A stretch of DNA of 63,523 bases, filler included. It is 5 parts of 5 records of this genome, joined end to end, with 100 filler letters (N's around TTAATTAATTAA, not from the genome) between each part and the next. Parts side by side here need not be neighbours in the genome. Positions count along the whole stretch, not along the records: positions 30,474 to 55,535 come from SRR31156797_9365; 4 more parts are not named here. The stretch is one strand, 5' to 3'. This document shows, piece by piece, positions 36,264 to 59,894 of the stretch. The translations under genes were made by a program, and so were the position numbers. How positions within the stretch are numbered: position 1 is the first letter of the stretch; each line of letters opens with the position of its first letter. The notes under the pieces were generated by a model. That model was not told the origin of the DNA, searched no databases, and saw nothing but the letters and a program-made list of their open reading frames with translations.

Positions 36264-36278
36264 AAAGGAGGTTTCAAT

Positions 36279-37723: not shown

Positions 37724-37730
37724 CGATTCA

Positions 37731-37866
37731 AGGTTGCAAGGTTGCAACTATATAAGAACTTGCAATGTTGCAATGTTGCTTCAACACGTTAAAGTGAGAG
37801 TTTTGTTACTTTTGTAAAAAGTAACGCAAAAGCACTTTCGGCAGGTATGCCAAAAGATGCTTTGCG
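37731..37866. repeat. Putative origin/oriT region upstream of the relaxase
   Basis: Repeated GTTGCAA units (37731-37779); GTTACTTTT/AAAAGTAAC inverted repeat; GCAAAAGCA...TGCTTTGC hairpin. Confidence 0.55.
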
Positions 37867-37923
37867 GTCTGTCGACGGCTTAGTTGGTTGTCGCTAAATA
37901 AATAATTAATGGAGGTATAAATA

Positions 37924-39063: not shown

Positions 39064-39089
39064 GCTCCTCCCCAAAAAAGGAGAATATA

Positions 39090-39428
39090 ATGAAAGCTAA
39101 AGAATTACCGATATACGAATATTCAGAGGGAAATGACCTTATATATGAATTAGGTGATGAGGATATTTACTATCCGATTATTTATGTAGTTAGTGCGGAG
39201 AAAAACTGCAATAAATCAGTTAAGGCTAGGACAAAGCTGGAATATATGAAAGAGCATGAGCTGGCATACTATGTTGAGCTGGTTGGGCAAGGAATATTAG
39301 AGGAACATATAAAAAAATACTTAGCACAACTTAATGAACTGGCAAATCAGATATTTTCTGAAATGGATATTCAAGATGCAATGGGCAGATTAATGGCTGA
39401 AGAAATAGCGAGAGATCACTTGCTGTAA
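39090..39428 (+). CDS. TnpV-like protein
   Basis: LIYEL....YYP, YMKEH...Y..L...G.L..H and MAEEI pattern of transposon TnpV proteins. Confidence 0.65.
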   Translation: MKAKELPIYEYSEGNDLIYELGDEDIYYPIIYVVSAEKNCNKSVKARTKLEYMKEHELAYYVELVGQGILEEHIKKYLAQLNELANQIFSEMDIQDAMGRLMAEEIARDHLL

Positions 39429-39770
39429 TTAAAGAAATTGCCGCTGGCAGCTAATACTAGCGGCAAAATTAATTTTTTGATTATATTTTCAGAGTGTATA
39501 ATATGCAATTTAGTAATTTTGCTGAAAACCGAGAGAAAATAATATTTTGTACAGCTTATGTGTACGGCATGCTGTACGTGGGTGATGCACGAAAATCAAA
39601 AGATTATTACTTGGTAAAATTGCGTGCTGTACATAGCTGTCATACAGGGATTTAAGCGAAATCACACAAATTCGTGAGTTTTATTAATCATAATGAATTA
39701 TTATACGAAATCTAATACTGCTGGACTGCCTTAGGGTAGTTCCAACAAACATTAAAAAGGAGTTTGCAAA

Positions 39771-40546
39771 ATGAAAAATACAAATATAATACCAATTATA
39801 AATAACAAAGACGGTGCGGAAAAAACTATTACAGCTGAGACAACAGCGAGCATACTAGCTGAAAAAGGATATAAGACATTGCTGCTGGACTTGGACCAGC
39901 AGGCTAATGTGACTGCAGCGGTAGGAGTGAAACCGACAGAGGGTATGCTTACAATATATGATATATTCTTTGAGAATAAGAATATCGATGATGTGGTTAT
40001 GGAAACGCAGTTTGATAATCTATATCTGATTCCATCATCTGGAGCATTTGTATCTGCACTGTCAAAGCTGACAGTTTAGATGATACCAGATAAGGATAAC
40101 ATCCTAAATCGTGCAATAAACAGCAGTGAGCAGGAGTTTGATTTTATAATTATTGACTGCCCACCTGCGCTGGACCATATAATTACTAACGCAATTATGC
40201 CTGCGACAAATATTGTGATAGCAACATCACCACGTAAGTTTAGCACAGATGGTATTAAAAGAATTATGAAATTCATTAAGAACTATGAGCCATATATGAC
40301 AGAGTTTAAAGGGTTCGGTATCCTGATAACAATGCATGAAAAACGTAGGAATGTTATTGATGGTGTGGTCAAATCAATTAAGCAGAATGAGTATCTGAAT
40401 GTATTTGATGCATTGATTGCTAAATCAACTGCTGTTGAGCAATCAGCATTTGCAGGTGTACCAATCAATCACTTTAATCCACAGTGTCAGGCAGCGTGAC
40501 TTATGCAGAATTTGTTGACGAACTGATTGAAAGATACGCTGATTAA
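39771..40546 (+). pseudogene. parA: ParA/Soj ATPase pseudogene
   Basis: Altered Walker A (KDGAEKT), DLDQQAN, IIIDCPP; in-frame TAG at 40077-40079; frameshift at ~40496 before TYAEFVDELIERYAD. Confidence 0.85.
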
Positions 40547-40609
40547 ATAGCACAACACATGGACTGCCCTAAGGGCAGTTCGTGAAATGAACAGAAAGGA
40601 TTATGATAT

Positions 40610-41419
40610 ATGGCAAAACAAAAAATAGATTTTAACAATATGGATTTAGGATTTGATGATATGAGTTCGGAAAAAGAGCATGAATTAATCTACAAAAAGG
40701 TAAACATTAATCAGCTGGACGAGAACCCAGAGAACAGTAATATATATGAAATAGATAAAGAAGCGGATGAGTTTCTAAAAGCGGATATTGGACGTAATGG
40801 TATTCTCAATCCAATAGTAATAATAAAGAGCGAACTACACTTTGGAAGATACATGATAGTTTCTGGTCACAGGAGAACCAGGATTGCAAAGGAACTAGGG
40901 ATGCATGAAATAGAAGCAAGGGAGATAATAGCCAAAACACCAGAGGAAAAGGTGTTTGCTAAGATAATGCTTATTACAGCTAATTCAACACAAAGGGATA
41001 GGAAACCATCTGAAAAAGCAAGAGAGGTGCAATACTTAAAATCTTTGGTGCAAAATAATAGCGGCATCGATAACATTGCTAAGTGGATAAGTAATGCGAC
41101 GAAAATGTCAGAGCGTAATGTATACAGATATGAAAAGTTTGCACAGCAGCCGATGGAAATGCAGGAGGCTGTTGATAATGGAGAGTTATCTGTTAAGCAG
41201 GCGATTGGGGAAATAAAGAGTAATAAAGAGAATCCAACATTTGCTGACCAGATGGAAATTGAAGTGTTAAAACTAGCGACAAAGGTAAATAAAAGTGTTG
41301 CTGCATTAAGGAAAATGAAGAATGAAAATGGAGATGATTATTTGGATGAAGAATCTGAGATATGCTTAAAGGGGGCGATTGAGACATTGAAGGAATTGTT
41401 GGTTGATTTAACAATATAG
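40610..41419 (+). CDS. parB: ParB N-terminal domain partition protein
   Basis: NPEN..IY, GILNPI, IVSGHRR, TANSTQR; follows parA. Confidence 0.85.
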   Translation: MAKQKIDFNNMDLGFDDMSSEKEHELIYKKVNINQLDENPENSNIYEIDKEADEFLKADIGRNGILNPIVIIKSELHFGRYMIVSGHRRTRIAKELGMHEIEAREIIAKTPEEKVFAKIMLITANSTQRDRKPSEKAREVQYLKSLVQNNSGIDNIAKWISNATKMSERNVYRYEKFAQQPMEMQEAVDNGELSVKQAIGEIKSNKENPTFADQMEIEVLKLATKVNKSVAALRKMKNENGDDYLDEESEICLKGAIETLKELLVDLTI

Positions 41420-41658
41420 TTTATATGGACTGCCCTCGGGGCAGTTCGACTTTTGCGATTGCATTAAAATTAGTAGATGATTTAGCTGATAAGTAAAAAT
41501 GATTAATTCTAATGTAAATTATCTTTTGCTTTAAAATTAGAACGATAATAACCTTATAACATGATTTATAGGCTAAATTTAAAAAAGAACTTTAATTTGT
41601 GCTCGTAAGTATTGAAAAAACATGATTTATATGCTGAATTTAAAAGGGAGTATATGAA

Positions 41659-42428
41659 ATGAAATATTATGAGGAACTTGCAAAGTTACAGTGCTTTTCT
41701 GTTGCACAAGTTGAGCAAATGATTGGTACTACAGCTAGCGCAAAAAACTTAATATTAGACTACAAACACAAAGGATATGTTGAATCAATAAAGCGTAATC
41801 TTTATGTGCTTATTAGCTTGGAAACAAAACAGCTTGTTGCAAATAGGTATAAAATAGCATCAAGTATAACAGAGAGCTCATATATTTCACACCATACAGC
41901 TTTTGAATACAATGGGTGCGCAAATCAGGTTTTTCATGAGGCTTATGTTTCTAGCGATAAGAAATTTGCTAATTTTGAATATGATGATATTACCTATTAT
42001 TATGTCGCATCACGTTTAAATACAGGTATTTATATCAAAGAAAATGGTGTCCGAGTGACATCAATTGAACGAACTATTATTGATTCTATAAATGATTTTG
42101 AGAAAATTGCTGGTATCGAGGAATTATTGTGGTGCATAGAGCTTATTCCTTATGCAGATGAAGATAAACTGCTGGATTTTTTAAGGCAGTATAATAAACA
42201 AATATTATTTCAGAAAACAGGTTATATTTTAGAGCATTATAAAAAGCAGCTTCGACTGTGCGATAATTTTTTTCAGAGTGTCAAAAAGGTATTAAGGATA
42301 GTGTTCGATATTTATACAAAGGTCTTGAGCATACTGCAAACATATATAATAAGGAATGGAAATTAATAGTGCCTAAAAACCTTATGCAATTAATTACAGA
42401 AGGAGATATTTTCGATGCCCCAGTATGA
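41659..42428 (+). pseudogene. abiEi: AbiEi-type antitoxin/regulator, frameshifted at T7 run
   Basis: YISHHTAFEY.G and VRVT..ERTIID motifs; +1 T at 42267-42273 restores a YNKEWKLIVP C-terminus ending at 42428. Confidence 0.75.
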
Positions 42429-42447
42429 TAAAAGGATATTATCCCAA
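42415..42447 (+). pseudogene. Probable 11-codon 5' stub of the cognate AbiEii toxin
   Basis: AGGAG RBS, then MPQYDKRILSQ overlapping the restored abiEi stop; interrupted by an IS end at 42448. Confidence 0.5.
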
Positions 42448-42945
42448 TGGCGTGACCCCCAATCCTTGTACCAGTTTAAATGTTAGTAAAATATGATAAA
42501 ATACTAACAAAGGAGACAGAGAAATGGGACGAAAAAACTACACAGCAGAGAATGCTTGGCATCTGTGGTAAGAAGAAGATTCAGGAATAATGACATAATT
42601 GAGATATTAGCTGAACTGATGGTTAAGCATGGAACACCTGAGTATCTACGTAGTGATAATGGTAGCGAGTTCACAGCAAAAAAGCTAATGAAATGGCTAT
42701 CAGATGTTAATGTCATAACTACATTTATTGAACCGGGTAGTCCATGGGAAAACGGCTACTGCGATAGTTTCAACTCTAGAATGAGAGATGAGTTTCTTAA
42801 TGGAGAAATATTCGGCAACATATTCGAAGCTAAGGTTTTGACAAAAAGATGGAAGGACTACTATAATACTATTAGACCCTACAGTGCTCTTGGTGGCAGA
42901 GTTCCTGCTCCACAGAGCATTACCATAAGTGCATTGGGAGTATAA
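42448..42945 (+). mobile_element. Internally deleted IS3-family remnant
   Basis: Left end TGGCGTGACCCCC...GTACCAG; orfA start MGRKNYTAE fused to an orfB core (RSDNGSEF, PGSPWENG, YNT.RP.SALG); no right end seen. Confidence 0.85.
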
Positions 42946-43029
42946 GTCTTCCTTAAATTCACATTGTCATATAACATTTTTTGGTGTAAAATAATTCTTG
43001 AATTATAAAAATTTGAGATACTAGTGTAG

Positions 43030-43230
43030 AAAAAGATTATTAAGCGCTATTATCCCATTATATATCTATGAAAATATTTAGAAAAGTGAGTATGTAATTA
43101 AACAAATCAAACGTATGATAATTTGGTAATAATATTAGTAGATGATTATTCTGAAGATTTAAGTGAAAAATTTGCGATAGGTTGGTCGAGGAAGATTAGA
43201 GAATAGTAGTTATTCATAAGAAAAATTCTT
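43030..43230 (+). pseudogene. Decayed GT2 glycosyltransferase fragment
   Basis: Broken frames read LLSAIIPLY, NQTYDNLVIILVDDYSED, RIVVIHKKN. Confidence 0.65.
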
Positions 43231-43686
43231 GTGAAAGTTCATTTCGGAAATCTAATGTTAATATTATTAAAGGAGCATATCTTTATTACTCTGATTATTT
43301 GGAAGAAATGTATTCATATTCTAATTTGATTTTAGTATTCAAGACAACGATTGTAAAGTAGCATTGATACTGTTCATAACTACAAATTAACTTATAAGTA
43401 TATTGAAACATGGTGTCCGGATAAGAATATTTTTAGTCGATATGTTTGCAATGGTCAAGAAAATTTATTCACAGAGTTTTAGGGAATTTGGAATATTTAA
43501 TTTAAATTACACGAAACCTAGACACTTGATTTAAAAATGAAATTTTGGTATTTTATAATAAGTATCGTTCAACATACCTAATAGATATGAATAAGAGATA
43601 GTTTGTAAAGGTGGACAGTTCCCTATTAGTATTAAATCAATTTATAAAGGTAATTTGTTGTTAAAAGAAAGCGAAAATATTATATA

Positions 43687-44874
43687 ATGAATATATTATT
43701 CTGGAAAAAAATAATGCAAGTCAATTTTAAAGATTTAATTCACATTTTAAAGTTTTTATTGTCTTTGATTCCTGCTATGATTTATAAATTAATTCGAAAA
43801 AATCTATACCTTGTCTGCGAATATCCCAGTGGAGCGCATGACAATGGATATTGGTTTTTTAAATTTGTTAGGGAGAATTATCCTAACGAAGATATTGTTT
43901 ATGCAATTAAAAAAAAATCTCATGAATATAACCAGGTAAAAAATCTTGGTGAAGTAGTTCAGTTTGGCAGTATTAAGCACTGGATCTATTTTTTATCCGC
44001 AAAGGCAAATATTAGCACCCAAAAGGGCGGCAAACCCAATGCAGCAATTTGTTATCTGTTGGAAGTTGTTTTCAAAATCGTACACGTAAAGAATGTTTTT
44101 TTACAGCACGGAGTGACAGTGAATAACTTGTCGTATCTTCATGCGAATAATGCGAAGATAGATTTATTTGTCTGTTCAACAGATGCTGAATACGAGTTTA
44201 TAAAGGAAAATTTCGGATACGATGAAAGTGTGCTGAAAAAGGTAGGAATGTGCAGATTTGATTCTCTGGACGGCGAAAAAATTAATTATAGAAAGGTGTT
44301 AATTGCTCCTACGTGGAGAAAATGGTTAGGGGATATAAAAGATGCAGATAAGTTTATGGAAACTGAATATTTTCTATCATGGCAAAGTGTGATTAGTGAT
44401 AAAAGATTTTTAGATATTATTGATAAACATCAACTAGAAGTATATTTTTACCTCCATGTTCACGTAGCTAGGTTTGCAGAGTGCTTTGAAAATGCAGATA
44501 GCAGGATAAAAATAATGACATGGGAAAATTCTAACTTGCAGAAATTGGTGAATGAATGCTGCTATATGGTTACAGACTATTCCAGTACTATAATTGATTT
44601 TTGTTATACAAATAAAAGGTCAGTATACTATCAGTTTGATTATGATGAATATAGAAACAGGCATCAGGCTCAGGGATATTTTAATTATGAAGTTGATGGA
44701 TTCGGGTCTGTTTGTTATACTAAAGAAAGATTGTTGAGAGATATTCAAAGTGCAGCAAAAAATGGATTTATGAATCCGGTAAAATACGAAAGGCGCATTA
44801 GCACATTTTTTATTTTTCGCGACAAGCTAAATTGCGAAAGGACATATAACGCAGTAAAAGAATTTATAGGATAA
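43687..44874 (+). CDS. CDP-glycerol/ribitol phosphotransferase family (TagF/TagB-like)
   Basis: FLQHG, G..RFD, IAPTWR, VTDYSS..DF, YYQFD. Confidence 0.9.
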   Translation: MNILFWKKIMQVNFKDLIHILKFLLSLIPAMIYKLIRKNLYLVCEYPSGAHDNGYWFFKFVRENYPNEDIVYAIKKKSHEYNQVKNLGEVVQFGSIKHWIYFLSAKANISTQKGGKPNAAICYLLEVVFKIVHVKNVFLQHGVTVNNLSYLHANNAKIDLFVCSTDAEYEFIKENFGYDESVLKKVGMCRFDSLDGEKINYRKVLIAPTWRKWLGDIKDADKFMETEYFLSWQSVISDKRFLDIIDKHQLEVYFYLHVHVARFAECFENADSRIKIMTWENSNLQKLVNECCYMVTDYSSTIIDFCYTNKRSVYYQFDYDEYRNRHQAQGYFNYEVDGFGSVCYTKERLLRDIQSAAKNGFMNPVKYERRISTFFIFRDKLNCERTYNAVKEFIG

Positions 44875-44890
44875 ATGTGTGTAATACAAA

Positions 44891-45913
44891 ATGATGGAAG
44901 ATTTAATAAGCATAATAATTCCTGTATACAATGTAGAGGAAACTTTGCAGAGATGTATGGAATCGGTAGTTAATCAGACGTATAAAAACTTAGAAATTAT
45001 ATTAATTAATGATGGTTCCATAGATAGTAGTGAAGAAATTTGCAATACTTATAGAAAAAAAGACAAACGAATAAAAGTAATCAATAAATCAAACGGTGGA
45101 GTCAGTTCTGCCAGGAATATGGGATTAGAGGAAGCTACAGGTAAATATATAGGATTTGTGGATTCTGACGATTATATAGAGAAAGATATGTTTTTATATC
45201 TGCATGAAAATATCGTTAAGCATAACGCAGATGTATCTGTGTGTACATGGTTTATTCATGAAAATAATGAAGTGGATACCAGAGGGTTTAGAACTCCTCA
45301 AAACAAATTGAGCGGAAAAGAAGCTATTTTTTATGCATTAAGAGGTGGATATTTTGACGGTTACCTATGGAATAAGTTATATGATGCGAGACTGATCAAA
45401 AAAGTTAAAGAGCAAAGCCCTGATAATCAAGTAATGGAAAAAGATATATTTATTTGTGAAGACTTGCTGTTCAACTGCCGGGCATTTAAAAATTGCAGAA
45501 GTGTTTATTATGAAGTGAAGGCGCTGTATCATTATATTATTCATGAAAGCAATGTTACTCGCTCTTTTAACGTTATAAAAAGAGAAAGTGAAATGAGGGC
45601 ATTAAAAAAGATAGTGGCCATGGCTGAGGAGGCAGATAGAAAATTACTGGGGATAGCCCAGTTTAAGTATACTCAGTCTGTATTAACCAATGTAAAAAAT
45701 GCACACGATGCTGGTAATTATAAAATGAAGCGAATAATGCACAAGCGAAGCAGAGAATATTTTTTAAATATAATGTTTTTTAAAGGGGTTGGAATAAAGA
45801 CTAAATTAAGATTATTGCTTATGTATATAGCGCCTGTAAAGAGCGTTGAAATTTGGCTTGATATAAAGAAAAGGTATGGACTAAGCAATTGGACCAAGCT
45901 GGGAGATAAATAA
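44891..45913 (+). CDS. GT2 glycosyltransferase
   Basis: ISIIIPVYN, NDGS.D, GVSSARN, FVDSDD. Confidence 0.93.
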   Translation: MMEDLISIIIPVYNVEETLQRCMESVVNQTYKNLEIILINDGSIDSSEEICNTYRKKDKRIKVINKSNGGVSSARNMGLEEATGKYIGFVDSDDYIEKDMFLYLHENIVKHNADVSVCTWFIHENNEVDTRGFRTPQNKLSGKEAIFYALRGGYFDGYLWNKLYDARLIKKVKEQSPDNQVMEKDIFICEDLLFNCRAFKNCRSVYYEVKALYHYIIHESNVTRSFNVIKRESEMRALKKIVAMAEEADRKLLGIAQFKYTQSVLTNVKNAHDAGNYKMKRIMHKRSREYFLNIMFFKGVGIKTKLRLLLMYIAPVKSVEIWLDIKKRYGLSNWTKLGDK

Positions 45914-45995
45914 GTGGTATTGGGGCTAAAACAAACAAAGATTACTAGACTATTAATATATAGTTATTACATTATTTATTTGAAATGGGGAAAAG

Positions 45996-47084
45996 ATGAG
46001 CAAGGGAAATGAAAAACCAACAGTAAGCATTATTGTTCCTGTATATAACGCAGGGAAATACTTAGGAGAATGTCTAGATGCGATGATAGCGCAAACATTT
46101 GAATCGTTTGAGGCTATATTGGTTAATGACGGTTCAAGTGATAACAGTGCTGAGATTTGTGATCAGTATACAGAGATAGACAGTCGTTTTAAAGTTATTC
46201 ATAAGGAAAATGAAGGCCCATCTGCAACACGAAATCGCGGTATTAAAGAGTCTAAAGGCGATTTTATAGTTTTCTGTGATGCTGATGATATTTTAACCGA
46301 AGGTGCGCTTGAAGAAATGCACAGAGTACTTACAACATATAACACAGAGTTAGTTATCACAGGATATGCAAAATTCAACCGATCGTCGGACCCACTGTGG
46401 GACAGACGAGTATTAAGCAAGTACTCATTGACTATCTTACAGTCTAAAATGGAATTAGGTTCAATATTCTTAGTTCCGTATACAAATCTATTCGGAGTAT
46501 CTATTTGGGCAAAAATGTACAGAGCGGATATTATACGCGAAAACGGCATTTTATTTCCGCAAGATATACACTACGAAGAAGACTGTTGCTTTAACCTACA
46601 GTATTTTAATTACGTTAATACCACTGCAGTTCTTCGTAATACAATGTATTTATGGAGACAGCATAAATCTTCATTGACAAAAGTATATAAAGTAGAAACT
46701 TATGATTATTTGGTTAACGGTTATAACGCAAAGGTAAGGTTTTTGGAATCTGTTGATATGGAGGAAAACATAAATAGACTCAACAATATCTTTTTGCTTG
46801 TAATTATAAGCCAATATAAGAAAATCATTTATACTTCAATGAGTAAAAAAGAAAGATTGAAAGTATACGAGGGGATGTTAGCTAAAGAAGAAACTAAGAA
46901 TATCTTTAAAACATGTGATTTATCAAAGTATAGATTGACTCGTGAGCTTACGCTTGCTTCCAGAAAAAATAACCCTAAGAAAATTGACAGGATACTTATT
47001 TTATGGTATATAAAAGCACAGTTAGATTCTTTAAAAAAATTCTTAAAAGGAATCAGACATAAAATAAAAAGGAAAATATCATAG
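45996..47084 (+). CDS. GT2 glycosyltransferase
   Basis: VSIIVPVYN, NDGSSD, FCDADD, YEED. Confidence 0.93.
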   Translation: MSKGNEKPTVSIIVPVYNAGKYLGECLDAMIAQTFESFEAILVNDGSSDNSAEICDQYTEIDSRFKVIHKENEGPSATRNRGIKESKGDFIVFCDADDILTEGALEEMHRVLTTYNTELVITGYAKFNRSSDPLWDRRVLSKYSLTILQSKMELGSIFLVPYTNLFGVSIWAKMYRADIIRENGILFPQDIHYEEDCCFNLQYFNYVNTTAVLRNTMYLWRQHKSSLTKVYKVETYDYLVNGYNAKVRFLESVDMEENINRLNNIFLLVIISQYKKIIYTSMSKKERLKVYEGMLAKEETKNIFKTCDLSKYRLTRELTLASRKNNPKKIDRILILWYIKAQLDSLKKFLKGIRHKIKRKIS

Positions 47085-47124
47085 AATTACGAAAACATAC
47101 AATTTGCATCTAGAAAGGAAAATC

Positions 47125-48306
47125 ATGAAAATAGGTATAATAACATTTCATTTTCCATACAATTGCGGAGCAGTACTGCAATGTGCAGCTCTTCAAACTC
47201 GTTTGGAAAATGCAGGGCATGAAGTTTGTGTAATTAACTATCGTCCATGGTATCATCAAAACAGATATACGCCTCTTAAGAACCCAGTATACTACTCAGG
47301 AAAGTGCATGAAAAAAAGAGTAGAGGGCGATACTTTGCCAAAGCGGCTGTTCAGAGGAGCGGACGGATTTGCCCGTACAGTATATTCATGGCGCAGATAT
47401 AAGGGGGCGAAAGCAAAGAATGTAAAATTTGAATCATTTATAAAAAGAACGCTGCACGAAACTCGCGTTTATCGTACAATTAGTAAGCTGCAGAACAAAC
47501 CGCCTAAATGTGACGTTTATATAAGCGGCAGTGACCAGCTTTGGAACCCGCACTTAACAGAAGGTAAACTAGACCCTGCTTATTGTCTTAAGTTTGGAGA
47601 GAAAAAAATCACTCGCATGTCATACGCTATTAGCCCTAACTTTAAGGAGGTTGCAGATCCTGTCAAATTAATTGGAGATTTGCTAGATGATTTTGATGCA
47701 ATATCTTTACGAGAGGGCAAATATGCAGAGACTGTAGGCAAAGCTGCAAAGAGTAAAGATATAAATATATGTGTAGATCCGGTTTTCCTTTTGGATGCTG
47801 AAGAATACGAGGATTTGATAAGCAAGGAGCCTCTTGAGAGTGAACCGTTTATCTTTACATACGCTATGCCTGATGTTACACAGCATAAAGTATATAACGC
47901 TGCAAAATTATTGTCAGAAGAAAAAGGCATAAAGGTTATAGATGCATCAGGAAACCCTTCAAAGGTTAATGCTAAGGTTAAAGACAACAGAGTCTGCGGC
48001 CCGGATGAGTTTTTGTGGTACATTAAAAACGCTGAATACGTTATTACAAATTCATTCCACGGCACGGCCTTTTCATTGGTTTACAGAAAGAATTTTATGG
48101 TTATTCCACACTCTAAGACAGGAAACAGAGCCATGGAAATATTGGATACATTCAAGCTTTCTTCATGCTACACAGACACCGGAGTTTCAGCAGCAAAAAA
48201 GATTACAAAATCTACTGATTATTCAGAGGCAGGAAAGCATATGGATGAAATTCGTGATAAATCTTTAAAATACCTATTTGATAATATAGGAAGAAAAAAA
48301 GGATAA
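47125..48306 (+). CDS. Polysaccharide pyruvyl transferase family protein
   Basis: KIGIITFH..N.GA.LQ, SGSDQLWN, ISLRE, DPVFLL, TNSFHGTAFS. Confidence 0.9.
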   Translation: MKIGIITFHFPYNCGAVLQCAALQTRLENAGHEVCVINYRPWYHQNRYTPLKNPVYYSGKCMKKRVEGDTLPKRLFRGADGFARTVYSWRRYKGAKAKNVKFESFIKRTLHETRVYRTISKLQNKPPKCDVYISGSDQLWNPHLTEGKLDPAYCLKFGEKKITRMSYAISPNFKEVADPVKLIGDLLDDFDAISLREGKYAETVGKAAKSKDINICVDPVFLLDAEEYEDLISKEPLESEPFIFTYAMPDVTQHKVYNAAKLLSEEKGIKVIDASGNPSKVNAKVKDNRVCGPDEFLWYIKNAEYVITNSFHGTAFSLVYRKNFMVIPHSKTGNRAMEILDTFKLSSCYTDTGVSAAKKITKSTDYSEAGKHMDEIRDKSLKYLFDNIGRKKG

Positions 48307-48321
48307 TAATAGGAGGAAAAT

Positions 48322-50208
48322 ATGTATACAAAAATAAAAAATGTTCAAATAATTGTTTCTTTGCTAAAGCAGCACGGAATAAAGCATTTAGTGCTGTCAG
48401 CAGGAACAAGACATGTACCGCTAGCTCACTCAGTTGAGAATGATGATTACTTTACATGTTATTCAGTAGTTGATGAAAGAAGTGCAGGATATTTTGCCTT
48501 AGGTCTGTCAAAAGAGCTGGGTGAGCCTGTTGCAGTTGCATGTACATCATCAACTGCAACATGTAACTATACACCACCGATTGCAGAAGCATATTATCAA
48601 AATGTACCTCTATTGGTTTTAACAGGCGACAGAGACCCATATAGATTAGGGCAATTAGAAGACCAAATGATTAACCAGGTAGATATGTTCAAGAATTTCT
48701 GCCGAAAATGTGTTAATCTTCCTATAGTTGATAATGATTATGATGCATGGTACTGCCAGCGTCTTGTAAATGATGCTATGCTTGAGCTGCGCCATAACGG
48801 CAGTGGTCCTGTGCAGATTAACTTTCCAATCAATCAAACAATCCGGGACATTGCTGATGCAAGTGTTCCTGAGTTACCCAAATGTAATAAAATCAGCAGA
48901 CTTACAGCAATGACTGAAGATGAGCTTTGGGAAAAAAAAGTTACTGAATTAAAGAAAGCAAAAAGAGTATTGATTATAGCAGGCAGCAACGACCGCATTC
49001 CGGAACGTGTTGAGAAGGTGATGGACAAGTTTTCAGAAAAATATAACGTTGTGTTTGCAACTGAACTGCTTTCGAATCTGCATTGCAAAAATTCTATGGA
49101 CACTTATTTTCTGGCACAGGCCACCAACGGAAAAGTTTTAAGACAGTTATCACCTGATTTGATAATTATGTTTGGCGGTAACTATGTGTCAAGACTAAAA
49201 ACTCTGCTACGCGGATACAAGGAATGTGAAAGCTGGCTGGTTGCAAAAGACGGAAAGATTTCTGACCCGTTGCAAAATTTAAGCACGGTATTTGAGTGTA
49301 ATTATGAATATTTCTTTAGTTATTTTGCAGAACATTCAGGACATATTAAAAATAACAAAAGTCTTCTGAAAGGTTTAGAGGCAATTCAAAAGCAAATTGA
49401 TAGCAAAAAGCCGGAAATAGCTGAATTGCCGAAGCTAGCTAATAAGTTTTCTATAAATGATGCAAAATTTAAAAACCTTCCAGCTCCTGATGAAAGCGAG
49501 CTGGTAGGTGATAATTATCTTTCTAGCTTCTTTGCGTTTAACGAGCTGTCCAAAAGATTACCAAATGACAGTTTAATACATTTAAGCATTCTAAACAGTG
49601 TAAGAATGATGTCAATCTTCCCGCTGGACAGGAGCATAACATGCTACTGTAACATTGGCACTGATGGAATTGACGGACCGGTTTCAACATTCTTGGGACA
49701 CGCTGCAGCATCAAATAAACCTTGTTATTTGGTAGTTGGAGATTTAGGGTTTTTCTATGATATGAATTCATTAGGAATAAACTGTATCAAGTCAAATATC
49801 CGTATATTATTGGTTAATAACCACGGCGGAGCAGAGTTTTACTATTCAATGGGACCAAAGATGCTGCCGAATATTGATTTGCATATTTCCGCAGCACATA
49901 GCAAAAAAGCAGCCGAGTGGGTTAAGGCAAATAACATCAGATATATGAAAGCAAGTACAGTTGATGAGTTTAACAGCCAGATTGAGGAGTTTGCAGACCC
50001 TAATTCTGAAGGTCCGATTGTAATGGAAATCTTTACTGATAAATTAAGGGATATCAAAGTGTTTAAGGCATTTAACAGAGCTGTACACGTTGCTACACCA
50101 TTAAAAAATGTAGCTGCAAAAATCTCTAAAGCTCCTGGCATAAGACAAATGCAGGAAACTGAAATGGGTAAAAAAATTAAGACAAAAGTCAAAGAAATTC
50201 TTGATTGA
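48322..50208 (+). CDS. MenD-like ThDP-dependent enzyme
   Basis: GTR..PL, DERSAGYFALG, CTS.TA, GTDGIDG..ST..G, GDL.FFYDMN...NNHGG. Confidence 0.88.
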   Translation: MYTKIKNVQIIVSLLKQHGIKHLVLSAGTRHVPLAHSVENDDYFTCYSVVDERSAGYFALGLSKELGEPVAVACTSSTATCNYTPPIAEAYYQNVPLLVLTGDRDPYRLGQLEDQMINQVDMFKNFCRKCVNLPIVDNDYDAWYCQRLVNDAMLELRHNGSGPVQINFPINQTIRDIADASVPELPKCNKISRLTAMTEDELWEKKVTELKKAKRVLIIAGSNDRIPERVEKVMDKFSEKYNVVFATELLSNLHCKNSMDTYFLAQATNGKVLRQLSPDLIIMFGGNYVSRLKTLLRGYKECESWLVAKDGKISDPLQNLSTVFECNYEYFFSYFAEHSGHIKNNKSLLKGLEAIQKQIDSKKPEIAELPKLANKFSINDAKFKNLPAPDESELVGDNYLSSFFAFNELSKRLPNDSLIHLSILNSVRMMSIFPLDRSITCYCNIGTDGIDGPVSTFLGHAAASNKPCYLVVGDLGFFYDMNSLGINCIKSNIRILLVNNHGGAEFYYSMGPKMLPNIDLHISAAHSKKAAEWVKANNIRYMKASTVDEFNSQIEEFADPNSEGPIVMEIFTDKLRDIKVFKAFNRAVHVATPLKNVAAKISKAPGIRQMQETEMGKKIKTKVKEILD

Positions 50209-50220
50209 TAAGAGGTATGT

Positions 50221-51060
50221 ATGAGCAAATTTAAGTTTCGCATGAAAAGAGCTTTTAATTATATTATGAAAGGCGTGCCGACAAAGGTAACCAAGGCTGA
50301 GGTAAAACAAATTCAGTATGGCGGCATTTTGGAAGGTAAGAAAATATTGATTACTGGCGGCAGCAGGGGATTAGGCTTTGCTATTGCAAAGCGTGCCCTG
50401 GAAGAGAAGGCTATAGTTTCTATTACCGGCAGAAAGATGGAAACATTAAAAGAAGCCAAAGAAAAATTAGGCAACCCTAAAAATCTATATTTGTTTGAAC
50501 ATAATATACGTGACTTTGCAAAGGATAAAGAATTAGTATATAATGCAAGAGTAAAAATGCAGGGCATTGACATATTAGTCAACAATGCGGGTGTGTCTAT
50601 ACACGACATAAATTATAGTAACTGCACAGAAGAGCAATGGGATATACAAATGGATACAAACCTAAAAGGTGTGTATTTTCTGACTCAAGCTTTCATGAAT
50701 TATTATAACGAGGTCGGCAAAAAGCAGGGTAAAATTATCAATATGGTATCCGAAAGAGGACTATATGGTGATGACGTTCCTTATGGACTTGCAAAAAGAG
50801 CTATTATCAGTTACACAGAAGGATTAGCCAGAGATTTGATTATAAAAGGTGTAAGAGTAAATGCAGTCGCACCGGGTGTAACAGCAACCGAGATGACAGG
50901 GCATTCACCTGACGGCAATCTTTTCAGACCTTATGCCAGAGGAAGACGTGTTTTACTATCGGAAGAGATTGCTGAGGTTACAGTTTTCTTAATGAGCGAT
51001 GCGGCAAACTGTATTTCAGGCCAGACAATAGCCTGCAACGAAGCCAATCACATAAAATAA
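50221..51060 (+). CDS. Short-chain dehydrogenase/reductase
   Basis: TGGSRGLG, NNAG, YGLAK catalytic motif, VNAVAPG. Confidence 0.92.
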   Translation: MSKFKFRMKRAFNYIMKGVPTKVTKAEVKQIQYGGILEGKKILITGGSRGLGFAIAKRALEEKAIVSITGRKMETLKEAKEKLGNPKNLYLFEHNIRDFAKDKELVYNARVKMQGIDILVNNAGVSIHDINYSNCTEEQWDIQMDTNLKGVYFLTQAFMNYYNEVGKKQGKIINMVSERGLYGDDVPYGLAKRAIISYTEGLARDLIIKGVRVNAVAPGVTATEMTGHSPDGNLFRPYARGRRVLLSEEIAEVTVFLMSDAANCISGQTIACNEANHIK

Positions 51061-51100
51061 TCTGTAATCACAATATTATTTTTAAACGTATAGGAGTATT

Positions 51101-51877
51101 ATGCAAGCAGTATTAAAAAGATTTAGAGAGAATAAGTTTCTGTTTTTGGAACTTGTAAAGAGAGACTTTAAGCAGAAGTATAAAAGGACATTTCTGGGTA
51201 TTTTGTGGAGTTTAATTTCTCCGCTGTTAACATTATTAGTAATGGCACTGGTGTTTACGCAGGTATACGGGAGGGATACTCCCCACTTCATTATTTATCT
51301 TTTTGCAGGTAACTTAAACTATATATTCTTTAAGCAGGCAACTGCAGATGGAATGACATCTCTTGTTTATAATGCAAATATTATTATAAAGATTAAGACA
51401 TCAAAATATATGTTCCTTCTTTCAAAGAATGTATCTTCATTTATTAACTATTTGTTGACGTTGATAATATTCTTTATCTTTGTAGCTGCAGAAGGACTAC
51501 CATTTTCTTGGAATTTCTTTTTGTTGATTATACCGATGGTATGTTTATTGTTGTTTAATATCGGTGTAGGAATGTTCTTATCTGCTATGTTTGTATTCTT
51601 TAAGGATGTAAAATATTTATATGATGTTTTTACTTTGCTGATAATGTATTTATCTGCAATATTCTATAGTATTGCTTCGTTCCCAGCTGAGATACAAAAA
51701 TTGTTTTTATTAAACCCTGTTTTCGTCTACATAAACTACTTCAGAGAGATAGTTATATATAATAATGTCCCGTCCCTTGCATACCATGGATTGTGTTTGT
51801 TGTATCCGACTATCGCTTTGCTTATTGGTTCGAGAATATATATAAAACATAACTATAGATTTATATACTATCTATAA
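51101..51877 (+). CDS. Polysaccharide/teichoic acid ABC exporter permease (Wzm/TagG)
   Basis: RDFK.KY..T.LG.LWS, LLNP; ABC-2 membrane pattern. Confidence 0.92.
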   Translation: MQAVLKRFRENKFLFLELVKRDFKQKYKRTFLGILWSLISPLLTLLVMALVFTQVYGRDTPHFIIYLFAGNLNYIFFKQATADGMTSLVYNANIIIKIKTSKYMFLLSKNVSSFINYLLTLIIFFIFVAAEGLPFSWNFFLLIIPMVCLLLFNIGVGMFLSAMFVFFKDVKYLYDVFTLLIMYLSAIFYSIASFPAEIQKLFLLNPVFVYINYFREIVIYNNVPSLAYHGLCLLYPTIALLIGSRIYIKHNYRFIYYL

Positions 51878-51939
51878 ACACAGGTTACAAGCATTAAAAC
51901 GTTACATAGGTGTTAGTATTTGAAAAGGAATAATATTAA

Positions 51940-52671
51940 ATGATTAGTGTAAACAACGTATCCGTCGGTTATTTGATGGGTGATTTTAAAGATATTGGTT
52001 TGAAGGATTTTGTTATTAATAAAATTCAGGGCAAACATAAAGTAGACTTTTTTTGGGCGGTAAAGGATGTGTCTTTTAATCTTGAAAAAGGTGATTTGTT
52101 AGGTATTGTTGGGACAAATGGTGCGGGTAAATCTACTTTGCTTAAGGTTCTTACTGGAATAATGCGGCCTACAAAAGGTGAAGTTCATGTTGACGGAAGC
52201 ATTAGCGCTCTATTAGAGTTAGGCTCAGGGTTTGACCCCAATTTAACAGTTAGAGAAAATGTGTTTTTGAGGGGCGCTCTGCTAGGATATAGTAAGCAGT
52301 TTATTATGGAGAAGTACGATGATATAATTGCGTTTGCAGAACTTGAGGATTTTCAGGACAGACCTTATCGGCAGTTATCGTCAGGCATGAAAACAAGAAT
52401 TGCTTTTTCAATCTCATGCTTGGTTAATCCGGATTTACTAATCCTTGATGAAGTATTAGCAGTAGGCGATGGCGCATTCAGGAAAAAAAGCGAAGCAAAG
52501 ATGATGGAAATTATCGGAGGAGATACTACAACTATTTTAGTCTCACATTCATTGGAGCAAATTAAGCGTCTTGCAAACAAAGTTCTATGGCTTGACAAAG
52601 GCAGGCAGATGGCTTTTGGTGAAACAAAAGATATTTGTGACAGGTATTACAAATATTTACAAGAGAAATGA
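51940..52671 (+). CDS. Polysaccharide/teichoic acid ABC exporter ATPase (Wzt/TagH)
   Basis: GTNGAGKST, LSSGM, LDEVLAVGD; no C-terminal carbohydrate-binding extension. Confidence 0.93.
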   Translation: MISVNNVSVGYLMGDFKDIGLKDFVINKIQGKHKVDFFWAVKDVSFNLEKGDLLGIVGTNGAGKSTLLKVLTGIMRPTKGEVHVDGSISALLELGSGFDPNLTVRENVFLRGALLGYSKQFIMEKYDDIIAFAELEDFQDRPYRQLSSGMKTRIAFSISCLVNPDLLILDEVLAVGDGAFRKKSEAKMMEIIGGDTTTILVSHSLEQIKRLANKVLWLDKGRQMAFGETKDICDRYYKYLQEK

Positions 52672-52755
52672 TAAAGGCGATTTATCATAAATGATATTAA
52701 AGGAAGGTCTGATATATCCGTTTCCCTTTTATATTTATTCGGAAATTAGGAAAGA

Positions 52756-53814
52756 GTGATGAAAACAAATAATAGAATGGAAATAGTCGATTTATGGAGA
52801 TTTGTATTTTGCTTGATAATAATGGCTTTCCATATGCAGAATTTTGAGCTAGAAGGAAATTTTCACTTTAATATTGGTTGGGCATTTGTCGAATTCTATT
52901 TTTTGCTGACTGGTTATTTTACTGCTCGTCATTTTGTTGAAAAGCAAAAATACGATGTTATAAATTATCCAGCAGCAAGTTCGATGGACTATGTTATAAA
53001 CAAGTTTAAATATATAATGCATTTCTCCACAATAGTCATTTTAGTGCAATATATAGTTACGGCAATAAGATTTAATCTAAGTTCATGGGATTTGGTTTTG
53101 TTCTTCGGCAAGATGCCAATAGAGATACTTATGCTATCTGCTACAGGACTGACTAAAACTCAGATTCAACCTCTTTGGTATTTGTCGGCGATGTTTATTA
53201 CATTACCTTTTATATGTTATCTGTTAATTAAAAAAAGAGATTTGTTTATGAACATCTTGTGCTGGGTTATCCCAGTTATATATTATGGATTTATAGGTGT
53301 TGAACAAGCAAGGCAGTGGCCTAATGACTTTTTGCGTGCATTTGCAGCAATGTCCATAGGCGTATTAGTGTACGTTCTAAGCGAAATGTTTAAAAAATAT
53401 GATTGTGTTAATTGGTTTAAAATTTTGCTTACCATAGTGGAAATAGGCTGTTTTGTAGGAGCAATAGCAATAGCATATATGAGATATCCCAGTTCCTATT
53501 TAAGAGTGATTTGGTTTTTGATGATACTTGGGTGTATAATAATGTTTTCACAGAGAAGTTATACTGCGGATTTGCATGGGGGATTTTTACGTTTCTTAGG
53601 AAGGCTGAGCCTTCCACTATATTTATGTCAGTCGACAGTCGGCAGGCTAGTTTCAATATGGTTTTCTGATTGGACATTCACCAATAAAGCAATTATATAT
53701 TATGCAATCACACTTATTTATTCGCTGATACTGTTAGGTGTAGTTAACTTACTGCGCAAAGATTCAGATAAGAAGTATGAAAATATAAAATTACTGGTGC
53801 AAAAGAGTAAGTAG
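52756..53814 (+). CDS. Acyltransferase-3 family membrane O-acyltransferase
   Basis: D.WR......MAFH, VEFYF.LTGYF, LWYLSA, G..S..LYL. Confidence 0.85.
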   Translation: MMKTNNRMEIVDLWRFVFCLIIMAFHMQNFELEGNFHFNIGWAFVEFYFLLTGYFTARHFVEKQKYDVINYPAASSMDYVINKFKYIMHFSTIVILVQYIVTAIRFNLSSWDLVLFFGKMPIEILMLSATGLTKTQIQPLWYLSAMFITLPFICYLLIKKRDLFMNILCWVIPVIYYGFIGVEQARQWPNDFLRAFAAMSIGVLVYVLSEMFKKYDCVNWFKILLTIVEIGCFVGAIAIAYMRYPSSYLRVIWFLMILGCIIMFSQRSYTADLHGGFLRFLGRLSLPLYLCQSTVGRLVSIWFSDWTFTNKAIIYYAITLIYSLILLGVVNLLRKDSDKKYENIKLLVQKSK

Positions 53815-53817: not shown

Positions 53818-54330
53818 TAGCGTGCTAAAAAAATTATCAATTCTAATGTTAGTAAATATGATAAAATATTAACAGAAGATATCAGAGAAATGGCAAGAAG
53901 AAATCACACAGCGGAAAATTAAAATGCTATGCAATTAAGGAAAGACATTTGATGAAGTAGCGCGACAAGAAGAGATAGCACAATAAACCTATTACAGATA
54001 GCGGAAATAGTATGGTGGTATGAACATCGTTGATGCAATGAAATTAAAATTACTGAAAAAGGAGAAAGCGCGTTTAAAGTGGATTATCGCTAATCAAGCG
54101 TTAGATATAGAGATACATAATTCGGTCAAAAAACTTGTAAGCCCGTACAAGCGCAATGTAGCCGTAGGGTATCTATTTACTGAGTATAAAGCATCAGAGC
54201 GACGGTATGTGAGGTGTTAGATATGAACCGATTAAATGATACGACGAATATGAAGTTAGAGAGAAAATTATGGAATAAGCCTTTAACTGTGGACGAACTG
54301 ATTATAGGTAAGTTACGATACAAGTAAATA
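53818..54330 (+). mobile_element. Second, heavily decayed IS3-family remnant
   Basis: Left region aligns with 42448-42550 (AATGTTAGTAAA-TATGATAAAATA.TAACA...AGAGAAATGG); broken orfA TYYR*RK*YGGM...E.ARLK..IANQALD. Confidence 0.75.
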
Positions 54331-55535: not shown

Positions 55536-55635
55536 NNNNNNNNNNNNNNNNNNNNNNNNNNNNNNNNNNNNNNNNNNNNTTAATTAATTAANNNNNNNNN
55601 NNNNNNNNNNNNNNNNNNNNNNNNNNNNNNNNNNN
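55536..55635. other. Artificial contig-joining spacer
   Basis: N-run + TTAATTAATTAA + N-run. Confidence 0.98.
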
Positions 55636-57699
55636 TCTAGTTCCCTATCCAAGTCTGTTTCTTCCAGCCGCAAGCACAGATCGGATAGGGTTTGCAACAG
55701 GGATGTAGAAAAGACAAGCTCCGACATGATCATAGATTCAGTTCCAATTATAGCCCTTTCTGTTGATATTAATGGCAATATTTCTTTTATAAATAAGAGA
55801 ATTCTTGGCCTGACTGGTTATGAGGAAAAGGATATTTCAGGGAAAAAATGGTTTACGACTTTAATTCCGGATGAATTCAGGCCTGAGTTATGTTCATTGT
55901 GGGATTATTTTATTTCAGGTAGTATCACATCGGTTAAAGATCTGGAAATTCCCCTTCAAAAGGCAGATGGTTGCGTAGTAAATGTTGCGTGGAATGCAGT
56001 TCCACTGGCAGATGATGATAACAGCTTTGAAGGCCTTTTAATTACAGGAAAAAACATCACAAGGCTGAAACCTTCACAGGTGAAATTTGAAGAAAACAGT
56101 TCTCTTTTCAGAAAAGTAACAAAACTTTCCCCGTTGTCCGTTGCTTTGCTGGACTCTGACTACAACCCTGGTTATGTGAACCTGAAATTTACAGAAACAT
56201 TTGGCTATACCCTGGAGGATGTTTCCTCTATGGGTGACTGGCGGGAATTTGTCCACTGTTCTCTATCTCAATCCCCTTCTCAAAATAATGTTGTTTACAC
56301 AAATGAATGTAAATTTCTCTGTAAAAATGGCTCAATAAAAGATATTGAATGCAATTTTACATGTATAGATGATGGTCGTATGCTTTTGATTTTCAAAGAC
56401 CTGACTGATGTAAAAGCAGCTCAAAAAGCTTTCAATCTTGATGAATTAAGGCTGGAAGCCCTTCTTGAACTAAACCAGCTTAATGATTCTATTTCAAGTG
56501 ATATCCTTAATTTTTCCCTTGAAAAGGCCGTTGAACTAACAGAAAGCCAGGCAGGATATGTTGGTTTTGTAAATGAGGACAAAAAGACAGTTAGTATGTT
56601 TGCATGGTCTGAGGGTTCAATGAAGGACTGTAAAATTGAAAACATATCAACAGTTTATCATCTTGATTCTATGGGATTATGGGGAGAACCTATCAGGAAA
56701 CGAAAGGCAATTGTGACAAACGATTATTCCAGTGAGCATTCCGGCAAAAAAGGAGTTCCTGATGGGCATGTTGGTATACGAAATCACCTTGGCATTCCTA
56801 TATTTGATAACAACAGGATTGTTATGGTTGCCGGTGTTGGGAACAAAGAAGAGGATTACGATAGTTCTGATATAAGACAGGTAACTCTGCTCATGGAAAG
56901 TACATGGAAGCTTATAACAAGAAAACAGGGCGAGGAAAAAATAAAAAAATATGCCCAGGAGCTTGAACGCAATAATAAAGAACTTGAGTCTCTTGATCGC
57001 ATGAAAGATGAATTCATGGCAAACATTACTCATGAACTAAAAACCCCCCTGATTCCCATCAAAGGATACAGTGAGTTACTTTTTGAAGGTCACCTTGGTT
57101 CCCTTGGGGAAGAACAAAGAAAAAGTGTTAGTGTAATTTTACATAATGCTCAGAGGTTACAGAAGCTTATAGATTCACTCTTATATATGCAAAATATTCG
57201 TACAGGGAATATACAGTATCATCTTGATTCCATTGGAATCGCCGCCTTGCTTGACGGGGTAACTGATGATCTATTGTCTGTCAACAATGGTGATTCTCCT
57301 TCTTTGTATAAAGAATACGACTCTTCTCTTGCCTACGTATGTGGTAATACCACATACCTTGAACAGGTTTTTTCCCACATAATTGAGAATGCTTTTAAAT
57401 TCACTCCCTCTGATGGTTCTGTGACGGTATGTGCCTCACAGGAAAAGAACCGTGTTCATATCGTTGTAAAAGATACTGGTATAGGTATATCCAAAAGTGA
57501 GATGTCCCACATCTTCAAACGATTCTATCAGGTTGATGGCTCACTTACCCGCCGTTATGGTGGTAACGGACTCGGATTATATCTTTGCAAGAGTGTTGTA
57601 GAGGCACATGGAGGTTCCATATGGGCCACAAGTGAAGAAGGCAAGGGTACTGAGTTACATGTTATCCTTCCTGTAGTTGAAGATGAGCAGGCCTGCTGA
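55636..57699 (+). CDS. PAS-PAS-GAF sensor histidine kinase, possibly 5'-truncated
   Basis: Frame open from contig start; PAS and GAF segments; THELKTPL, NAFKFT, DTGIGI, GNGLGL. Confidence 0.92.
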   Translation, partial: SSSLSKSVSSSRKHRSDRVCNRDVEKTSSDMIIDSVPIIALSVDINGNISFINKRILGLTGYEEKDISGKKWFTTLIPDEFRPELCSLWDYFISGSITSVKDLEIPLQKADGCVVNVAWNAVPLADDDNSFEGLLITGKNITRLKPSQVKFEENSSLFRKVTKLSPLSVALLDSDYNPGYVNLKFTETFGYTLEDVSSMGDWREFVHCSLSQSPSQNNVVYTNECKFLCKNGSIKDIECNFTCIDDGRMLLIFKDLTDVKAAQKAFNLDELRLEALLELNQLNDSISSDILNFSLEKAVELTESQAGYVGFVNEDKKTVSMFAWSEGSMKDCKIENISTVYHLDSMGLWGEPIRKRKAIVTNDYSSEHSGKKGVPDGHVGIRNHLGIPIFDNNRIVMVAGVGNKEEDYDSSDIRQVTLLMESTWKLITRKQGEEKIKKYAQELERNNKELESLDRMKDEFMANITHELKTPLIPIKGYSELLFEGHLGSLGEEQRKSVSVILHNAQRLQKLIDSLLYMQNIRTGNIQYHLDSIGIAALLDGVTDDLLSVNNGDSPSLYKEYDSSLAYVCGNTTYLEQVFSHIIENAFKFTPSDGSVTVCASQEKNRVHIVVKDTGIGISKSEMSHIFKRFYQVDGSLTRRYGGNGLGLYLCKSVVEAHGGSIWATSEEGKGTELHVILPVVEDEQAC

Positions 57700-57749
57700 G
57701 GTCTTCAGAGAATCATTTAACAATAATCAATCATATCAGCTATTGTCTC

Positions 57750-59054: not shown

Positions 59055-59059
59055 TGGTT

Positions 59060-59848: not shown

Positions 59849-59894
59849 GGTATCAAGCTTCCAGAGCTATAATTAGGACTGTTCTCAATTATAC

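Follow-up and report, generated by a model that had tools for sequence, protein, structure and literature searches.

A conserved gene set for a pyruvyl transferase, a MenD-like enzyme and a ketoreductase, with a probable role in making an acidic side chain of a cell-surface sugar polymer

Genes at the locus

The DNA considered here is a stretch of 63,523 nucleotides (hereafter the window), made up of five pieces that are joined via four N44-TTAATTAATTAA-N44 joints (5066-5165, 10911-11010, 30374-30473 and 55536-55635). Its fourth piece carries three closely packed plus-strand genes encoding a polysaccharide pyruvyl transferase family protein (PyrT), a MenD-like thiamine diphosphate (ThDP) enzyme of the 'E-type' (P0001) and a classical short-chain dehydrogenase/reductase (SDR) of the ketoreductase kind; together, the three enzymes probably equip a bacterial cell-surface sugar polymer with an acidic side chain of an unusual kind. 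PyrT (47125-48306, 393 amino acids) matches PF04230 (PS_pyruv_trans) with 102.6 bits for a cut-off of 25.3; P0001 (48322-50208, 628 amino acids) matches TIGR00173 with 281.7 bits for a cut-off of 244.2; and the SDR (50221-51060, 279 amino acids) matches PF00106 (adh_short) with 148.8 bits. These limits leave gaps of 15 and 12 nt, exactly as given in an earlier note on this DNA. The open reading frame (ORF) list starts PyrT at TTG 47104; ATG 47125 is more likely to be the true start because it is preceded by an AAAGGA ribosome-binding site.

Nine plus-strand genes in all were found between 43687 and 53814 by ORF calls and by Pfam and NCBIfam scans. Upstream of the three are a gene for a TagF-like CDP-glycerol glycerophosphotransferase family protein (43687-44874; PF04464, 103.1 bits) and genes for two GT2 glycosyltransferases, GT2a (44891-45913; PF00535, 137.7 bits) and GT2b (45996-47084; PF00535, 126.6 bits), the second of which probably adds the sugar that is subsequently tailored. 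Downstream are genes for a Wzm-type ABC-2 permease (51101-51877; PF01061 and NF050109), a Wzt/TagH-type ABC ATPase (51940-52671; PF00005, and NF010066 with 178 bits, under its cut-off of 320) and an Acyl_transf_3 membrane O-acyltransferase (52756-53814; PF01757, 60.2 bits). The earlier note had set the triad between TagF-like and GT2 genes on one side and wzm/wzt on the other, and the domain scans agree with it. Because the window mixes organisms, only genes within 30474-55535, the 25-kb contig to which the cassette belongs, can be used as its context; the left and right limits of this contig are the joints (no strand) at 30374-30473 and 55536-55635.

The sequence of PyrT has no match in the PDB at E <= 0.01. 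Its predicted model (predicted local distance difference test score, pLDDT, 88.2) shows a GT-B-like fold and aligns with the yeast pyruvyl transferase Pvg1p (5ax7_B) over 252 residues, with a Z-score of 17.5 and a root-mean-square deviation of 3.1 A. In a wide structural search Pvg1p ranks 10, among generic GT-B enzymes that score up to Z 20.0, and in a Foldseek search with the same model the best 29 of 500 matches are generic GT-B enzymes. The best solved matches of the SDR are FabG-type ketoreductases, and its motifs, seen in the sequence and in an alignment to 3enn, are TGGSRGLG (TGxxxGxG), the Ser and YGLAK (YxxxK).

The ThDP enzyme is MenD-like with a rebuilt donor site

The best solved relatives of P0001 are the MenDs of Listeria, B. 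subtilis, S. aureus and E. coli (best PDB matches, E 2.7e-47). P0001 was aligned with E. coli MenD, two MenDs from men operons of Bacteroidales and further relatives, and was found to retain E52, R30, R104, Q115, R428, D474, N500 and G502 (P0001 numbering). The ThDP-activating Glu and the metal-binding Asp/Asn motif (E52, D474, N500 and G502) are thus present, as are the isochorismate-binding arginines, R30 and R104 being the equivalents of B. subtilis Arg32/Arg106 and E. coli R33/R107. Five positions of E. coli MenD are replaced: R413 by Ile445, I474 by Glu505, S391 by Leu424, L478 by Ser509 and N390 by Ile. The first of these is the 2-oxoglutarate-binding Arg (B. subtilis R428, E. coli R413), and the hydrophobic Ile-Phe-Leu patch (B. 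subtilis I489/F490/L493) reads Glu505-Phe506-Ser509 in P0001. According to Dawson 2010 (PMC2914249), R428 of B. subtilis MenD acts mainly in the binding of 2-oxoglutarate, R32 and R106 serve isochorismate recognition, and I489, F490 and L493 are strictly conserved. By alignment, then, P0001 has lost the donor-binding arginine, and a conserved hydrophobic contact has become an acid. The earlier note had proposed a repurposed MenD fold and had asked for a check of the isochorismate-binding residues; R30 and R104, for isochorismate, are kept, and R413 and I474 are changed.

P0001 has a basic C-terminal tail (residues 592-628) that is found in the clade of the window enzyme and is missing in E. 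coli MenD, and residues 1-36 of the SDR form a basic N-terminal extension before the Pfam domain. As a speculation, both may be membrane-surface anchors for lipid-linked substrates.

A scan of 1.84 billion representatives with P0001 gave 9833 matches at E <= 0.001, of which the best 150 (50%-identity representatives) were analysed. R413 and I474 (E. coli numbering, here and below) occur together in 60 of these, a Glu stands at position 474 in 41 and the other 49 have other combinations. In the Glu-474 representatives Arg at 413 is missing without exception (41/41) and R395 is almost always retained (40/41); compared with canonical MenD they differ, at a consensus of at least 85%, by N390I, S391L, I474E and a Phe-to-Tyr change at position 60. 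The donor pocket varies across the family, with I, V, L or T at position 413 and, in the clade with fused proteins (see below), Gly-x-Met-Leu-Leu or Ser-Arg-Arg-Leu-Leu.

In a FastTree phylogeny (LG+gamma, 186 sequences, fragments P0201 and P0220 excluded) the Glu type falls into a single 77-leaf clade (support 0.951), to which the window enzyme and all loci in which PyrT adjoins the ThDP gene belong. Another clade, with 27 leaves and a support of 1.0, is marked by Leu-Leu at positions 474/475. Neither clade includes E. coli MenD or the men-operon MenDs of Bacteroidales (loci L011 and L017). The separation from canonical MenD that the earlier note looked for was therefore obtained, in a midpoint-rooted tree, with P0001 in the separate 77-leaf clade.

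The distribution of the family is sporadic. At E <= 1e-30, three of the 200 genomes scored for the class of G001 had a MenD-family match, G001 being one of them (a 201st genome was left unscored); for the class of G004 it was 1 of 121 genomes, namely G004 itself. One Glu-type representative comes from an actinobacterium, Agromyces allii.

Menaquinone genes and the annotation of MenD

The genes for menaquinone synthesis were sought in the genomes of four cassette-bearing relatives (G001-G004) and in a control genome from Parabacteroides (G005). Each of the five has a match to TIGR00173 that exceeds the cut-off. The control has menF, menD and menB adjacent to one another and is also positive for MenA. 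None of the four cassette genomes has a match for MenB or MenA, nor one for isochorismate synthase over the family cut-off (there is one sub-cut-off match, in G002). As metagenome-assembled genomes make up three of these four, absence of a gene is not proven. The earlier note had pointed to the lack of men genes on the contig; this holds for 30474-55535 and carries little weight for a contig of only 25 kb, and the genomes of the relatives were tested instead.

Source annotations label relatives of P0001 menD. The men-operon MenDs score 362.8-375.7 bits with TIGR00173 and the distant Glu-type clade scores 137.8-182.5 bits; the second ThDP enzyme of locus L003 (L003b, 264.9 bits) and two proteins in which PyrT and ThDP domains are fused (P0153, 264.3 bits; P0167, 295.5 bits) pass the cut-off, as does P0001. 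Since PyrT fusions, which cannot be plain MenDs, are among the proteins that it accepts, the TIGR00173 'equivalog' model over-calls MenD. Read from its residues and its setting, P0001 is not a working MenD; it is a member of the cassette and not a menaquinone gene.

Conservation of the gene set

Linkage was examined in 27 loci with P0001 matches from species-representative genomes (counts by tblastn, samples confirmed by Pfam). A PyrT homologue lies upstream of the ThDP gene in 23 of them, and because it recurs in so many related loci the arrangement is far above chance. Of the four loci without PyrT, three come from Bacteroidales (L010, L011 and L017) and encode MenF, MenB and MenC in its place, and L018 is cut at its start. 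Three PyrT loci (L001, L002 and L019) end at or inside the ThDP gene; all 20 that reach beyond it have a reductase downstream. The family of this reductase varies. The window and its closest relatives have a classical SDR; L005, like most of the distant clade, has an extended SDR; the second cassette of L003 has an aldo-keto reductase (AKR); and in L026 and L027 a Gfo/Idh/MocA protein is accompanied by AKR-Fer4. Exchange of the reductase family while PyrT and the ThDP enzyme stay fits a ketone that needs to be reduced. Joint conservation of the triad, on which the earlier note had made its proposal depend, is thus borne out by PyrT in 23/27 loci, by a reductase in 20/20 and also by PyrT-ThDP fusions.

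GT2b lies immediately upstream of PyrT in L001-L009 (40-51% identity by tblastn; in two pieces in L007), and in the clade of the window the cassette consists of four genes, GT2b-PyrT-ThDP-reductase. In L004, GT2b and PyrT share one uninterrupted frame of 753 codons (5725-7986), which may be a GT2-PyrT fusion.

Several loci show other forms of the cassette. L003, from a metagenome-assembled genome of Eubacterium, has two PyrT-ThDP-reductase cassettes in tandem, one at 2908-6831 with a classical SDR and one at 7906-11554 with an aldo-keto reductase; their ThDP enzymes have diverged, with 60% and 46% identity to that of the window. A third form, seen at L026:2928-11395 and in L027, consists of PyrT, an unknown 428-amino acid protein, an ATP-grasp ligase, a Gfo/Idh/MocA protein and the ThDP enzyme, with AKR-Fer4 downstream; the presence of a ligase points to a possible amidation of the new carboxylate. 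A distant form was found in a Wzy-type locus on the mobilizable megaplasmid pRUMAL01 of a cultured carrier, Ruminococcus albus 7 (DSM 20455; L041, NC_014824.1 351-356 kb), where PyrT (RUMAL_RS18370) is encoded together with a flippase, a 'thiamine pyrophosphate-binding protein' (the ThDP enzyme, RS18380) and, as the reductase (RS18385), an NAD-dependent epimerase-family protein. The same locus encodes three LicD proteins and a cytidylyltransferase.

PyrT and ThDP domains in single polypeptides

Fusions were sought among the 29 representatives of at least 700 amino acids in the best 150. Nineteen of the 29 join a PS_pyruv_trans domain to the ThDP enzyme, one of them with an additional FrhB-like domain; AKR(+Fer4)-ThDP fusions account for three, and there is one extended-SDR-ThDP and one FrhB-ThDP fusion. 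The PyrT domain of the fusion P0223 is 49% identical to the window PyrT over 385 amino acids, which means that what are two separate genes in the window exist elsewhere as a single polypeptide. The canonical pair R413 and I474 is present in none of the 19 PyrT fusions: P0223 is of the Glu type and the other 18 are in the group with other combinations. R395 and R413 are both retained in 5/19, and these five could, judging by the two residues, still use 2-oxoglutarate.

The FrhB/FdhB-like flavin/iron-sulphur domains are fused to PyrT-ThDP in P0205 and to ThDP alone in P0198. Beside pyruvyl transferases, such domains might reduce enolpyruvyl or keto groups.

Mobile-element surroundings and the other pieces of the window

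On the left part of the contig, 3' of guaA, lies a mobile-element-like module (34051-41419; plus strand, HTH gene on the minus strand) with Pfam matches to a helix-turn-helix (HTH) protein, a tyrosine integrase, a NikA-like protein, AAA_25, a Mob_Pre relaxase, TnpV, a split ParA and ParB. The ParA (AAA_31) match is divided between two adjacent ORFs, 39771-40079 and 40080-40499, which cover profile positions 2-97 and 102-168, so that this is probably a broken gene. The ends of the module were not located: when the 3' side of guaA was compared with the remainder of the window for att-type repeats, only chance matches of 12-15 nt came up, and megablast of 34000-43700 against plasmids gave no match.

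Two IS3-like transposase remnants stand on either side of the glycan cassette. The left one (42469-42945, +), recognized by Pfam and sequence comparison, consists of an OrfA start and an rve_3 fragment; the right one (53829-54150, +), recognized by sequence comparison, is an OrfA interrupted by stops. They match each other in direct orientation (42479-42553 versus 53845-53919, 83% over 76 nt). The two degenerate remnants around the cassette resemble a decayed composite transposon. The suggestion of the earlier note that the cassette was spread by a mobile element is circumstantially supported by these remnants, by the integrase/Mob/Par module and by the sporadic distribution of the family; on the other side, att sites were not found.

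The joints of the window truncate genes, PyrB at 11033 and IMPDH at 30591 each being without its 5' part. The piece at 11011-30373 encodes the bacterial ribosomal proteins S6 and L9. The piece at 55636-63523 appears to be archaeal and Methanolobus-like, its TiaS (57750-59054) being 82% identical to Methanolobus TiaS, and genes for a KaiC-like protein and NAD synthase adjoin TiaS. TiaS and KaiC had been considered as neighbours of the cassette and were dropped, since a contig joint separates them from it.

Proposed reaction sequence and its alternatives

The reading that we favour, to which we give about even chances by analogy with known enzymes, is a cytoplasmic tailoring cassette that would place an enolpyruvyl ether on a sugar, add to it an acyl unit from a small 2-oxoacid by a Stetter-type reaction and reduce the resulting ketone, to give a 2,4-dihydroxyalkanoate 2-ether. 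GT2b, to judge by its conserved adjacency, would add a sugar to a lipid-linked polymer, and PyrT would use phosphoenolpyruvate (PEP) to put an enolpyruvyl group on that sugar, presumably stopping at the enol ether and not proceeding to a ketal. The use of PEP is established at the level of the pyruvyl transferase family. The ThDP enzyme would then decarboxylate a small monocarboxylic 2-oxoacid, most likely pyruvate, and, as MenD chemistry and the rebuilt donor pocket suggest, C3 of the enolpyruvyl group would receive the acyl anion in a 1,4-addition of the Stetter type, with a 4-oxo-2-O-glycosyl acid as the outcome. Reduction of the 4-ketone by the SDR with NAD(P)H, which is suggested by a ketoreductase that is always there and changes in family, would yield, for pyruvate as donor, a 2,4-dihydroxypentanoate-type 2-ether on the sugar. 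The finished wall or teichoic-acid-like polymer would be exported by Wzm/Wzt; since PEP, ThDP and NAD(P)H are cytoplasmic, tailoring would take place on the lipid-linked polymer prior to this export.

As to the donor, the earlier note had left the choice between pyruvate and 2-oxoglutarate. A hydrophobic pocket devoid of the dicarboxylate-binding Arg favours pyruvate, and the loss of R413 argues against 2-oxoglutarate for the window enzyme; branches that keep the Arg may use 2-oxoglutarate.

A product of the predicted kind has been reported. According to a review (PMC10609480, citing Shashkov 2008), 2,4-dihydroxypentanoic acid 2-ethers occur on Man O-4 in the O31 antigen of Providencia alcalifaciens, and such ethers are present in stereoisomeric forms on different sugars; the 2,4-dihydroxypentanoate-type ether that the earlier note had predicted is therefore a reported bacterial glycan substituent. 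That the differing reductase families could account for the differing stereoisomers is a speculation. The literature searched had nothing relevant on the O31 gene cluster and no genes assigned to its ether, and a review of E. coli O-antigens (PMC7685785) has lactyl ethers without gene assignment.

Several points weigh against this reading. The TIGR00173 match of P0001 exceeds the curated MenD cut-off, and R30, R104 and R428 are kept. R33 and R107 are both Arg in only 12/41 Glu-type representatives, so that acceptor binding is not uniformly explained. The relatives used in the survey and the tree are the best matches of the query, a sample biased toward it; the root of the tree, being placed at the midpoint, is arbitrary; and the evidence on men genes comes from the 25-kb contig and the genomes of relatives. 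On the chemical side, PF04230 enzymes are, to our knowledge, known only as makers of pyruvate ketals, an enol ether is electron-rich and a poor Michael acceptor, and every chemical step is inferred from sequence and analogy. The refuting conditions of the earlier note that could be checked from sequence all turned out in favour of its proposal. Overall, the gene observation of the earlier note is confirmed and its interpretation is partly supported, with strong genetics and inferred chemistry.

Among the alternatives, the one that survives best keeps the logic of the cassette and changes the donor or the outcome: a longer or branched 2-oxoacid might be used, the ThDP enzyme might act before PyrT, or the product might be lactonised or amidated. 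The variable donor pocket across the family and the extra ATP-grasp ligase of L026 are in line with it; the smaller hydrophobic pocket of the window enzyme (N390I, S391L and R413I) best suits a small aliphatic donor, however, and the reported natural C5 ether suits pyruvate, so that we regard this alternative as unlikely.

We consider improbable an acyloin or branched-chain route like that of YerE, in which the ThDP enzyme would add an acyl anion 1,2 to the carbonyl of a sugar aldehyde or keto-sugar, the reductase would make or reduce the carbonyl and PyrT would act independently on the same residue. An oxidoreductase is indeed constantly present, L013 has genes of the GDP-mannose 4,6-dehydratase type, and MenD enzymes perform 1,2-carboligations in vitro. 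But a dehydratase that would form the keto-sugar was not found within 43687-53814, nor consistently across the loci; P0001 is closest to MenD, with at most 55 bits to acetohydroxyacid synthase (AHAS) models versus 281.7 for MenD; and the route leaves the fusion of PyrT to the ThDP enzyme in 19 representatives unexplained.

Finally, a genuine MenD (SEPHCHC synthase) that lies in a glycan locus by accident, which would fit the TIGR00173 score (281.7 versus 244.2 bits), relatives annotated menD and the retention of E52, R30, R104, Q115 and R428, is very improbable in view of Ile445 and Glu505 at positions which Dawson 2010 (PMC2914249) describes as strictly conserved, the lack of matches to MenB and MenA, and of any isochorismate synthase over the cut-off, in the genomes of four relatives, the separate clade of P0001, and the PyrT fusions P0153 and P0167 that pass the same cut-off.

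Comparison with known systems and significance

The proposed tailoring by enolpyruvyl transfer, Stetter-type addition and ketoreduction can be set against four known systems. MenD (EC 2.2.1.9; PDB 9e9b/3lq1, 2x7j, 7tin and 5ej4) resembles P0001 in its ThDP fold of three domains, in the cofactor Glu and metal Asp/Asn, in the equivalents of R33, R107, Q118 and R395 and, as proposed, in the kind of reaction, where decarboxylation precedes a 1,4-addition of the Stetter type on an alpha,beta-unsaturated carboxylate; P0001 differs from it by R413I, I474E, S391L, N390I and L478S, by its separate clade and by its PyrT and reductase partners. The substrate of MenD itself bears an enolpyruvyl ether.

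Polysaccharide pyruvyl transferases (PF04230; Pvg1p, 5ax7), of which CsaB, WcaK and EpsO are further examples, resemble PyrT in the Pfam domain, in the GT-B-like model and in the presumed PEP donor, whereas they form cyclic ketals and PyrT is proposed to form an enolpyruvyl ether that is handed to the ThDP enzyme. MurA and MurB make an enolpyruvyl ether from PEP on a sugar and deliver hydride to C3, which yields the lactyl ether of muramic acid. The cassette would have in common with them the PEP-derived enolpyruvyl ether, attack of a nucleophile at C3 and a 2-O-linked acid; it would differ in that the nucleophile is a ThDP-bound acyl anion and not hydride, in the family of the transferase and in the later ketoreduction. 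YerE, an AHAS-like ThDP enzyme, catalyses 1,2-addition on a nucleoside diphosphate (NDP)-4-keto-sugar in the synthesis of branched-chain sugars. Here the likeness lies in a ThDP enzyme with a reductase in a glycan locus and a two-carbon unit from pyruvate; unlike YerE, P0001 is MenD-like, no gene that would form a keto-sugar was found in its locus and its constant partner is a pyruvyl transferase.

No prior description of a MenD-like enzyme in glycan loci was found in the full-text literature searched. Fries 2019 (PMC6618250) points to MenD homologues in which the conserved Arg is missing, mostly replaced by Gln, as having a possible unexplored substrate scope, and gives no gene context; the gene context described here offers an answer for these 'unexplored' Arg-less homologues. 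We suggest, with somewhat less than even confidence, that the sets of PyrT, MenD-like ThDP enzyme and ketoreductase constitute a large, modular and unrecognised system of 'glycan Stetterases', which would write ether-linked hydroxy-acid decorations on cell-surface polymers of Bacillota, Actinomycetota and others. In such a system the donor pocket would select the acyl unit (hydrophobic in the Glu type; in the Leu-Leu type, the two arginines for 2-oxoglutarate may be present or absent), and the exchangeable reductase would set the stereochemistry.

For annotation, the consequence is that gut Clostridia in which no other men genes were found are given a MenD, which distorts predictions of the vitamin-K2 pathway from metagenomes. 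For enzymology, natural Stetter-type enzymes are, as far as we know, few, namely MenD, PigD and a handful of relatives. If the proposal is true, a whole family working on enolpyruvyl groups attached to sugars would add a new class of reaction to glycan tailoring, and the 2,4-dihydroxypentanoic acid ethers of Providencia O-antigens, an orphan natural product, would gain their genes.

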